Origin: Candidatus Woesearchaeota archaeon
GTDB taxonomy: Archaea > Nanobdellota > Nanobdellia > Woesearchaeales > SKGA01
Reading direction: 5' to 3'
Assembly: GCA_021734105.1 (NCBI GenBank)
Contig: JAIPJP010000001.1
Location: forward strand, 36,603 to 100,602
Length of the DNA stretch: 64,000 bases
Part shown: positions 19,551 through 20,212 of the stretch, one piece after another
Layout of the letters: each line of letters begins with the position of its first letter
Numbering within the stretch: position 1 is the stretch's first letter
The notes under the pieces: model-generated
The model's input: only the letters and a program-made list of their open reading frames with translations
Told to the model about the DNA's origin: nothing
Database searches by the model: none
Program-made: the position numbers and the translations under genes

Positions 19551-19739
19551 GTAAAAAAGACATGCTCGCCACTATTTAAACTATGTAGAAAATCACTTGT
19601 TGTGCAATCAACAACACTACAACTGCCTTAAAGAGCATCTATGTTTGCTGTATTTCTTGTGTTGGCGCAAGAAATCCCTGCAGCGAACGATAAAAATTTC
19701 GAGCCAACAGCGAGAATAATTCTTCGCAGTAGTGTTGTT

Positions 19740-19860
19740 TTGCTTGTGGCTGTCACGGTACTTTGTTTGTTGCTGTCGCAGTACTTTGTTTGTGGCGGTG
19801 CTGTTGTGTTTGTGGTATGCGTTATTTTTGTGGCGGTGCTGTGTTTGTAGCGAGGTGTTG
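19740..19860. repeat. GT-rich degenerate tandem repeats of about 25-40 nt per unit.
   Basis: 'gtactttgtttgt' occurs twice and 'ttgtggcggtgctgt' occurs twice, within 'tgtggctgtcacggtactttgtttgttgctgtcgcagtactttgtttgtggcggtgctgttgtgtttgtggtatgcgttatttttgtggcggtgctgtgtttgtagcg'. Confidence 0.6.
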
Positions 19861-19924
19861 TAGCAAAGTTTTCATTTTGCGGTGTTTGATAATTAATAAT
19901 TGATAATTAAGAAAAAAGAATCTG

Positions 19925-20207
19925 AATAATAATAATAATAATAATAATAATAACTAAATAAGTAAGAAAAATAATAATTCAAAAAGTACTATACTAATAA
20001 TTCAAAAAGAACTAAACAAGAAATAAACAAGAAATAAAAAAGAACTAAACAAGAACTAAACAAGAAATAAAAAAGAACTAAACAAGAACTAAACAAGAAC
20101 TAAACAAGAAATAAAAAAGAAATAAAAAAGAACTAAACAAGAACTAAACAAGAAATAAAAAAGAAATTCAAAAAGAAATTCAAAAAGAAATAAAAAAGAA
20201 ATAAAAA
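19925..20207. repeat. An AT-rich tandem-repeat block. (ATA)n is followed by about 20-25 copies of 11-12-nt units: 'aagaactaaac', 'aagaaataaaa' and 'aagaaattcaaa'.
   Basis: Read directly: 'aataataataataataataataa' is followed by '...aagaactaaacaagaactaaacaagaaataaaaaagaactaaacaag...aagaaattcaaaaagaaattcaaaaagaaataaaaaagaaataaaaaa'. The block lies between the 3' end of the 886-aa gene at 20213 and the taw3 upstream region. Confidence 0.8.
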
Positions 20208-20212
20208 ATTAT

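Follow-up and report, generated by a model that had tools for sequence, protein, structure and literature searches.

The spacer between an 886-aa surface-protein gene and taw3 in a Candidatus Woesearchaeota genome contains an array of 11- and 12-nt tandem units. We consider it probable that this array is a lineage-specific minisatellite that grew by amplification of the oligo-T terminator tail behind the surface-protein gene, and that a separate GT-rich insert with decaying repeats lies beside it. The spacer was analysed within a window of 64,000 nt, whose numbering is used throughout, and is the longest of the window's 30 intergenic regions (Table 1). The compound make-up that the initial annotation had given it (GT-rich repeats, a trinucleotide run and 11- to 12-nt tandem units) is borne out, apart from the corrections noted below.

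The taw3 product and NCBI protein K9M74_00235, which comes from a Candidatus Woesearchaeota MAG, have the same sequence. Homologues of the product are annotated as tRNA wybutosine-synthesizing protein 3, and the Pfam TYW3 match confirms the identity first proposed for the gene. The translation of the 886-aa gene has a signal peptide and a C-terminal TM anchor, and the product is predicted to be a secreted or membrane-anchored surface protein; this gene and the 700-aa Por_Secre_tail gene probably make up one operon. The 886-aa gene had been called convergent with taw3. This is wrong: both genes are on the minus strand and are arranged in tandem, co-directionally. The orientation matters because the array, when read in the gene sense, is a T-rich tail that directly follows a stop codon. 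The position of the TATA box (Table 1) makes the taw3 promoter proximal, so that the other ~600 nt of the spacer are not needed for it.

Table 1. Positions of the spacer, its repeat components, the neighbouring genes and the related sites in the window.
Feature	Position	Strand	Basis and remarks
Na+/H+ exchanger with TrkA-N	17273-18982	+	Pfam
taw3	18966-19550	-	Pfam TYW3, E 4.6e-52; TYW3 methyltransferase; downstream gene of the pair
Spacer surface-protein gene/taw3 (662 nt)	19551-20212		5' of taw3, 3' of the 886-aa gene
TATA box of the taw3 promoter, TTTAAATA	19573-19584	-	~34 nt upstream of the ATG
~115-nt element	19619-19734	+	blastn, alignment, nhmmer; not in relatives
69-aa hydrophobic orphan ORF (probably spurious)	19641-19850	+	antisense to the flanking genes; called on Logan contig
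GT-rich block	19739-19880	GT-rich on +, AC-rich in gene sense	TRF, repeat families; absent from relatives
14-nt tandem duplication, TTGATAATTAA(T/G)AA x2	19886-19913		family D5
(AAT)9 microsatellite	19925-19951		sequence, TRF
~4-5 degenerate array units	19952-20006	-	family D1, identities 61-80%
Minisatellite, 18 head-to-tail 11- or 12-nt units	20007-20206	- (gene sense)	TRF and unit-by-unit parsing
886-aa surface-protein gene	20213-22873	-	ORF list, translation, Pfam: CARDB/PKD-like Ig domains
700-aa Por_Secre_tail gene	22909-25011	-	Pfam
Second short T-rich tail, TTTTATTTCTT x2	26443-26507	+	directly after the stop of a 382-aa gene
Paralogue of the 115-nt element	44290-44407	-	nhmmer E 0.004-0.009, both directions; 25 kb away

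Unit-by-unit parsing of the array gives eight copies of AAGAACTAAAC, one of AAGAAATAAAC, seven of AAGAAATAAAA and two of the 12-nt AAGAAATTCAAA on the + strand. In the gene sense these read GTTTAGTTCTT (x8), GTTTATTTCTT (x1), TTTTATTTCTT (x7) and TTTGAATTTCTT (x2). In TRF the array spans 20004-20208 (period 11; 18.5 copies; matches, 90%; score, 259); higher-order blocks score 287 (period 33) and 323 (period 44), a periodicity that indicates multi-unit duplications. The observed unit counts were reached by none of 100 dinucleotide shuffles of the window. The adjoining degenerate units look like an older, decayed edge of the array, and together with the 18 clean units they bring the total to about 22-23 rather than the ~25 copies first counted. 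The trinucleotide run, described earlier as (ATA)8, is (AAT)9. That the array is non-coding, as had been stated, follows from a period of 11, which is not a multiple of 3, and from stops in all six frames across 19881-20212. The array thus shows the head-to-tail units of ~10-100 nt with high inter-unit identity that characterize a minisatellite or VNTR. The initial annotation was also right to set CRISPR aside. CRISPR was taken here as direct repeats of ~23-50 nt with unique spacers of similar length; the units of the array abut (their start-to-start spacing equals the unit length), there are no spacers, and no Cas domain is found among the Pfam matches of the window ORFs.

Archaeal RNA polymerase terminates at T5-T6 (PMC2253867), and in Methanococcus a larger number of U4 tracts goes with higher termination efficiency and aCPSF1 binding (PMC8716108). 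From these two studies we took runs of at least 4-5 T, in the sense strand and shortly after a stop, as the mark of an archaeal oligo-T terminator, and the array has such runs. The TAA stop of the 886-aa gene lies 6 nt from the array start and is followed, in the gene sense, by TTTTATTTCTT, GTTTAGTTCTT and TTTGAATTTCTT units. The first T6 begins 5 nt past the stop, and the first 300 nt of the sense strand contain 13 tracts of T5 or longer. The array stretch is also the most AT-rich of the window (84-85% over 200-300 nt) and the most A/T-skewed, as expected of a poly-T terminator array. Several observations count against the terminator reading. Half of the array units (GTTTAGTTCTT) are individually without a run of T4 or longer, and extreme AT content and strand skew are also compatible with other roles of easily melted DNA. 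In relatives of this genome 2-5 T-tracts suffice, so that 13 tracts serve no evident need, and the expansion of the array may be without any function at all.

The T-rich motif is enriched after stop codons in general. Outside the array, the decamer TTT[TA]TTTCTT occurs 26 times in the window and nine related contigs. Of these 26 sites, 14 fall within the 300 nt that follow, in sense, the stop of an ORF of 100 aa or more, against a background expectation of 13%. A search for the 11-mers elsewhere in the window had a mixed outcome. Outside the array, unit B (TTTTATTTCTT in the gene sense) is confined to the second T-rich tail (26.4-26.5 kb), where 75 nt of T-rich sequence 3' of the 382-aa gene (25282-26430, + strand) include it twice, and unit A has no other site anywhere in the 64 kb. 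Similar T-rich tails follow the window genes at 51474-51770 (- strand), 61812-63497 (+ strand) and 31745-34072 (+ strand). A 22-mer scan for the dimer of unit A in public genome and metagenome collections, which do not include the MAG itself, returned only four unrelated runs of 2-6 copies.

The array resembles archaeal oligo-T terminators in having several consecutive sense-strand T5-T6 runs right after a stop, and in a motif that is found again behind other genes and, in the relatives, behind the orthologous gene. The array differs in scale, with 13 tracts in 300 nt and a near-perfect 11-nt duplication, where known examples have one to four tracts in less than 40 nt. Such multi-tract terminators are known from the Pyrococcus histone gene, with four consecutive oligo-dT signals, and from the U4-tract/aCPSF1 system of Methanococcus.

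No relative above 74% TYW3 identity was found. The closest relative with genomic context (L003, 74% TYW3 identity) has the gene order Por_Secre_tail protein, 889-aa CARDB protein, taw3 and Na+/H+ exchanger. Its spacer of 75 nt consists of a T-rich tail (TTTTATTTTTTTTCTTTTTTTATTCTTATTTT) with near-matches to TTTTATTTCTT (e.g. TTTTATTCTT), and the taw3 TATA box follows at once. In a second relative (L007, 67% identity) an orthologue of the 886-aa gene, likewise of 886 aa, is located upstream of taw3; the spacer of 290 nt (57% T) contains exact TTTTATTTCTT and GTAGTTCTT-like motifs, which are degenerate and not arrayed, and then the taw3 TATA box. The T content of the L003 and L007 spacers is 57-59%. 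In a third relative (L005) the genes are rearranged, yet the CARDB gene is again followed by T-rich tracts. The distance between this TATA box and the ATG of taw3 is the same in all three relatives as in the window. The clean array and the GT-rich block are both missing from all of the relatives, the L003 and L007 spacers included; the expansion is specific to this lineage. The conserved short tail in the relatives had been missed in the initial annotation. A related A-rich array of 12-13-nt units (AAGAAAATAAAA) is found at the very start of the L005 contig; such arrays thus recur in the clade and end contigs.

We propose that the ancestral tail comprised a few tens of nt with TTTTATTTCTT-like motifs, and that replication slippage or unequal recombination would have expanded it, in this lineage, to at least 18 near-identical 11/12-nt units. 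The spacer would have grown by repeated local tandem duplication of non-coding DNA. The most likely role of the array would be that of a redundant terminator or insulator, which halts read-through from the surface-protein operon ahead of the taw3 promoter; the extra unit copies are probably neutral and their number unstable. Like prokaryotic intergenic minisatellites (VNTR), the array is non-coding and consists of head-to-tail 11-12-nt units with variants arranged in higher-order blocks. The locus differs in length among related genomes (75, 290 and 662 nt) and short-read assemblies break there. It is unlike them in that the array is part of a compound cluster beside three other repeat families and that polymorphism within the population is, in this case, presumed. 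Among the options raised at the outset (a nucleoid-organising, a replication-related or a copy-number-variable minisatellite element), the evidence favours the minisatellite over the other two, with variability in copy number as our inference.

The GT-rich half is part of a lineage-specific insert of ~300 nt. The GT-rich block includes a degenerate 23-nt tandem unit in 2.5-3 copies (19739-19807; TRF score 88; family D4) with copy identities of 100, 83 and 65%. GTACTTTGTTTGT occurs at 19758 and 19781 and the 16-mer TTTGTGGCGGTGCTGT at 19789 and 19827. The block includes an exact 13-mer and this exact 16-mer, each present twice, and an exact repeat as long as the latter arose in 1 of 1000 Markov-1 simulations of the block. 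The 115-nt element is the promoter-proximal part of the insert. A perfect inverted repeat of 11 nt, AACAACACTAC/GTAGTGTTGTT (19610-19620/19729-19739; I4), flanks it on both sides. Its 3' end (CGCAGTAGTGTTGTTTTGCTTGTGG) is echoed by CGCAGTACTTTGTTTGTGG in the 23-nt units (families D3 and D4), and the 23-nt units appear to have been seeded from there. Within the insert, the 115-nt element, of which there is another copy at a distance of 25 kb, gives way to decaying 23-nt duplications that would have started at its 3' end.

The paralogue of the 115-nt element is located in a convergent spacer, at a place where the relatives have a 127-141-aa gene; tblastn gave no match that would make either copy a decayed form of this gene. 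Consensus folding of the two copies yields ~-7.5 kcal/mol with one or two compensatory pairs, depending on the strand. This does not make a case for a structured RNA, as the end stems differ between the copies and at most 1-2 compensatory pairs are too weak a signal. Nor is there a case for a MITE: there are two copies in 64 kb, the terminal inverted repeats are unlike between them and no target-site duplication was recognised. The element has no matches in the relatives or in phage, plasmid and viral collections, blastn of 19596-19900 against phages and plasmids returned nothing, and a search for its pattern in viral contigs gave a single GC-rich chance match. Rfam gave no family for the whole window at the gathering threshold or for 19400-20400 at E up to 1, where an isrC match (E 0.56) was dismissed as chance.

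There is some chance, though not a large one, that neither the array nor the compound region around it has any role, even in termination, and that the whole is neutral junk at a slippage-prone hotspot, tolerated in an otherwise compact genome. The short spacer of the closest syntenic relative implies that most of the 662 nt is dispensable. Furthermore, four repeat families of unlike age lie side by side, and the window has other spacers of 405-545 nt. This reading is opposed by the first units past the stop, which retain the T-tract motif that the relatives preserve behind this gene and that is enriched after stops generally. The retained motif makes it very likely that at least the proximal part of the array is a terminator. 

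We regard it as unlikely that the spacer harbours a small divergent unit on the + strand (~19607-19880), encoding an sRNA or the 69-aa peptide and transcribed from a palindromic TATA box (TTTAAA) in common with taw3. In that case the spacer would consist of back-to-back terminators, a GT/T-rich one for the + strand unit and an A-rich one (T-rich on the minus strand) for the surface-protein gene. Indeed, the + strand of the GT-rich block carries T5 and TTTTCATTTT tracts; the ORF starts with ATG, has a T5 tract within it and is followed, 18 nt past its TAG stop, by TTTTCATTTT with its two T4 tracts. The succession of T/G-rich and A-rich sequence on the + strand resembles convergent spacers elsewhere in the window. 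The ORF was predicted by a gene caller, and its codon score exceeds that of 99.8% of off-frame windows. Folding of 19600-19900 is slightly better than that of shuffles on the plus strand (z -1.98, compared with -0.75 on the minus strand), although neither value is convincing. Against this stands the isolation of the ORF: its only match, in libraries of 5.8 billion clustered and 1.84 billion representative proteins, is itself, and it has no Pfam domain and is absent from the MAG's NCBI protein set (source 'lgn' only). Its codon score is below that of 99% of real in-frame windows, and it contains 5.8% Cys versus 1.9% in the window genes. An open frame is expected at an A content of 10%, a composition that opens frames on both strands. 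In the 44.3-kb paralogue a stop follows after 18 codons and the gap lengths are not divisible by 3, and the alignment suggests a pattern of change that is not codon-like. There is no convincing Shine-Dalgarno sequence, the TATA box is ~64 nt from the ATG of the ORF, the segment is absent in the relatives and Rfam has no match. We think that the ORF is probably a spurious by-product of the GT-rich composition.

We hold it to be quite improbable that the array is a functional element tunable by copy number. This could be an adjustable terminator or insulator, a boundary whose A-tracts exclude nucleoid proteins or histones or, more remotely, a set of centromere-like or origin-associated iterons.

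Still less credit is due to the idea that the array is in the first place a protein-binding iteron array or an unwinding element, be it an origin DUE, a centromere-like partition site or a histone/nucleoid-organising site. It does have at least 18 direct repeats at 11-bp spacing, no other stretch of the 64 kb is as AT-rich or as strand-asymmetric, and a wedge model renders it somewhat more compact than random DNA. The 38 window ORFs, however, include none with an Orc1/Cdc6, ParA/ParM/ParR or Rep domain, and Pfam likewise gave no AAA-Cdc6 match among them. The ORB consensus, which may not fit DPANN ORB, has 5 matches in the window compared with 4.6 expected and none in the spacer. No inverted repeats flank the AT-rich block. 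The cumulative GC skew climbs steadily through the locus, with small dips over minus-strand genes (including 20-22 kb) and no lasting sign change. The array is not conserved in relatives of like synteny, and its unit dimer is found elsewhere only in the unrelated short runs mentioned above. These results do not sustain the replication-related option of the initial annotation, for which the proximity of orc1/cdc6 had been the point to check (none lies within the 64 kb); the nucleoid-organising option is equally unsupported.

Phased A-tracts had been expected to curve the DNA strongly. A modest bend is indeed predicted by a Bolshoy-type wedge model, whose figures are approximate: the array has a mean curvature of 11.3 degrees/turn (window, 7.05 +/- 3.7), which ranks fourth among 200-nt segments. 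Its end-to-end ratio is 0.82. Random DNA gives 0.94 +/- 0.04, composition-matched shuffles give 0.86 +/- 0.09 and a phased A6N4 control gives 0.31. The curvature is thus far below that of phased A-tracts and cannot be called strong. The 11-nt period, described as approximately helical, is out of phase with the ~10.4-bp helical repeat, and the bending is modest for this reason.

The parC site of plasmid R1 has 11-bp iterons. The array shares with such centromeres the geometry of 11-bp tandem direct repeats. It has no partition or Rep genes nearby (actin-like, ParA and ParR genes are all missing from the window), is not conserved and is composed of low-complexity A/T-rich units rather than a specific binding motif. 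With an archaeal oriC, in which ORB repeats and an AT-rich DUE lie by orc1/cdc6, it has in common only the AT-rich, easily melted stretch; the locus lacks ORB-like repeats and a switch in skew, and orc1/cdc6 is absent from the 64 kb.

An assembly artefact, in which the assembler made the length of the array or even the join of its flanks, is scarcely probable. Two independent k=31 contigs from SRR12088348 agree letter for letter with 16698-20053 and 20138-24367 of the window, and both stop inside the array. The 84 nt between them are bridged in the MAG contig only, where the number of units rests on the MAG assembler, and assembly errors are known to arise at tandem repeats (PMC6868369). Nevertheless, each contig end contains several units, so that the array is real, and in L003 and L007 the surface-protein gene and taw3 are neighbours in the same orientation, so that a chimeric join can be set aside. 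The doubt concerns the copy number only, not the array or the join.

The locus, a compound intergenic repeat expansion with a minisatellite that probably arose from a terminator tail, is an ordinary feature. It has little significance beyond the quality of annotation and assembly: the locus marks an uncertain sequence length in the MAG, and the 69-aa gene call within it is probably spurious. Were the array tunable, as a terminator or as a boundary, a DPANN archaeon would have a locus of the contingency type; in the terminator version its length would set the transcription leak from a highly expressed surface-protein operon into taw3. On the reading that we prefer, amplification from the tail of the surface-protein gene, the locus would illustrate how minisatellites can be seeded by the T-rich terminator tails of archaea, small DPANN genomes included. 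If the copy number is variable and affects read-through, it would offer a simple natural system for dose-dependent oligo-T termination.

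The spacer upstream of the Na+/H+ exchanger gene contains a conserved structured element with homologues on two contigs of relatives, L006 and L003. Its stem of 13 bp (ATGGGCGCTGCTA / TGGCGGCGCCTAT) closes a loop of 42 nt that holds the conserved motif CTGTTGTTAxCCCTTAA, and is followed by a run of T6–T8 and a second hairpin. Comparison of the window with the two relatives revealed compensatory changes at three stem positions, and the single-sequence fold z-score is −4.95. No Rfam match was found for the element. It may represent a small ncRNA or a structured 3′ element, and is a candidate for either. 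The 70-aa ORF predicted across it is probably spurious, since the loop in L003 carries a 2-nt deletion. The element is located immediately 3′ of the 418-aa gene and 5′ of the exchanger gene. At its other end, the exchanger gene converges with taw3; their 3′ ends overlap by 17 nt (18966-18982), and there is thus zero spacer between the two genes.

Tandem repeats are found in several other places (see table). The contig L005, from a further relative, begins within an A-rich tandem array with units of 12–13 nt (AAGAAAATAAAA / AAGATAAATA), which resemble the unit of the 11/12-nt minisatellite beside the surface-protein gene; the array lies 5′ of the L005 Na+/H+ exchanger gene. The 72-nt repeat in the DEAD-box helicase gene probably encodes a repetitive C-terminal tail.

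The non-coding element of ∼ 115 nt in the GT-rich insert between taw3 and the surface-protein gene has a paralogue at 44.3 kb. At both loci, the element is missing from the corresponding spacers of the relatives. At 44.3 kb, the relatives have, in its place, a gene that encodes 127–141 aa.

Coordinates of the features (window positions unless a contig is named)
Feature	Position	Strand	Setting
Conserved structured element	16739-16815, second hairpin to ∼ 16860	+	3′ of 418-aa gene
Homologues of structured element	L006 8312-8426; L003 10301-10412 (minus strand)		
Degenerate low-complexity AAAAGT/AAAGTA array	16917-16991		545-nt spacer 5′ of Na+/H+ exchanger gene
Paralogous non-coding element, ∼ 115 nt	19619-19734; 44290-44407	+; −	two spacers, one genome
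(TAT)n low-complexity repeat	34082-34144		convergent spacer 3′ of 775-aa gene
629-aa protein, bacterial-type DnaB helicase N- and C-terminal domains	38088-39977	−	archaeal genome
Fic/DOC, RadC-like JAB and ParE/Gp49-like toxin gene cluster	53619-56616		low-GC stretch
72-nt repeat, 2.2 copies, internal period 24 nt	63110-63271		within 3′ end of DEAD-box helicase gene (61812-63497)
T-rich 24-nt repeat, 2.2 copies	63498-63550		directly 3′ of DEAD-box helicase gene
A-rich tandem array	L005 1-92		start of contig

The 629-aa DnaB-type protein may derive from a mobile element, and the cluster that includes the Fic/DOC gene has the appearance of an islet of mobile or defence type.
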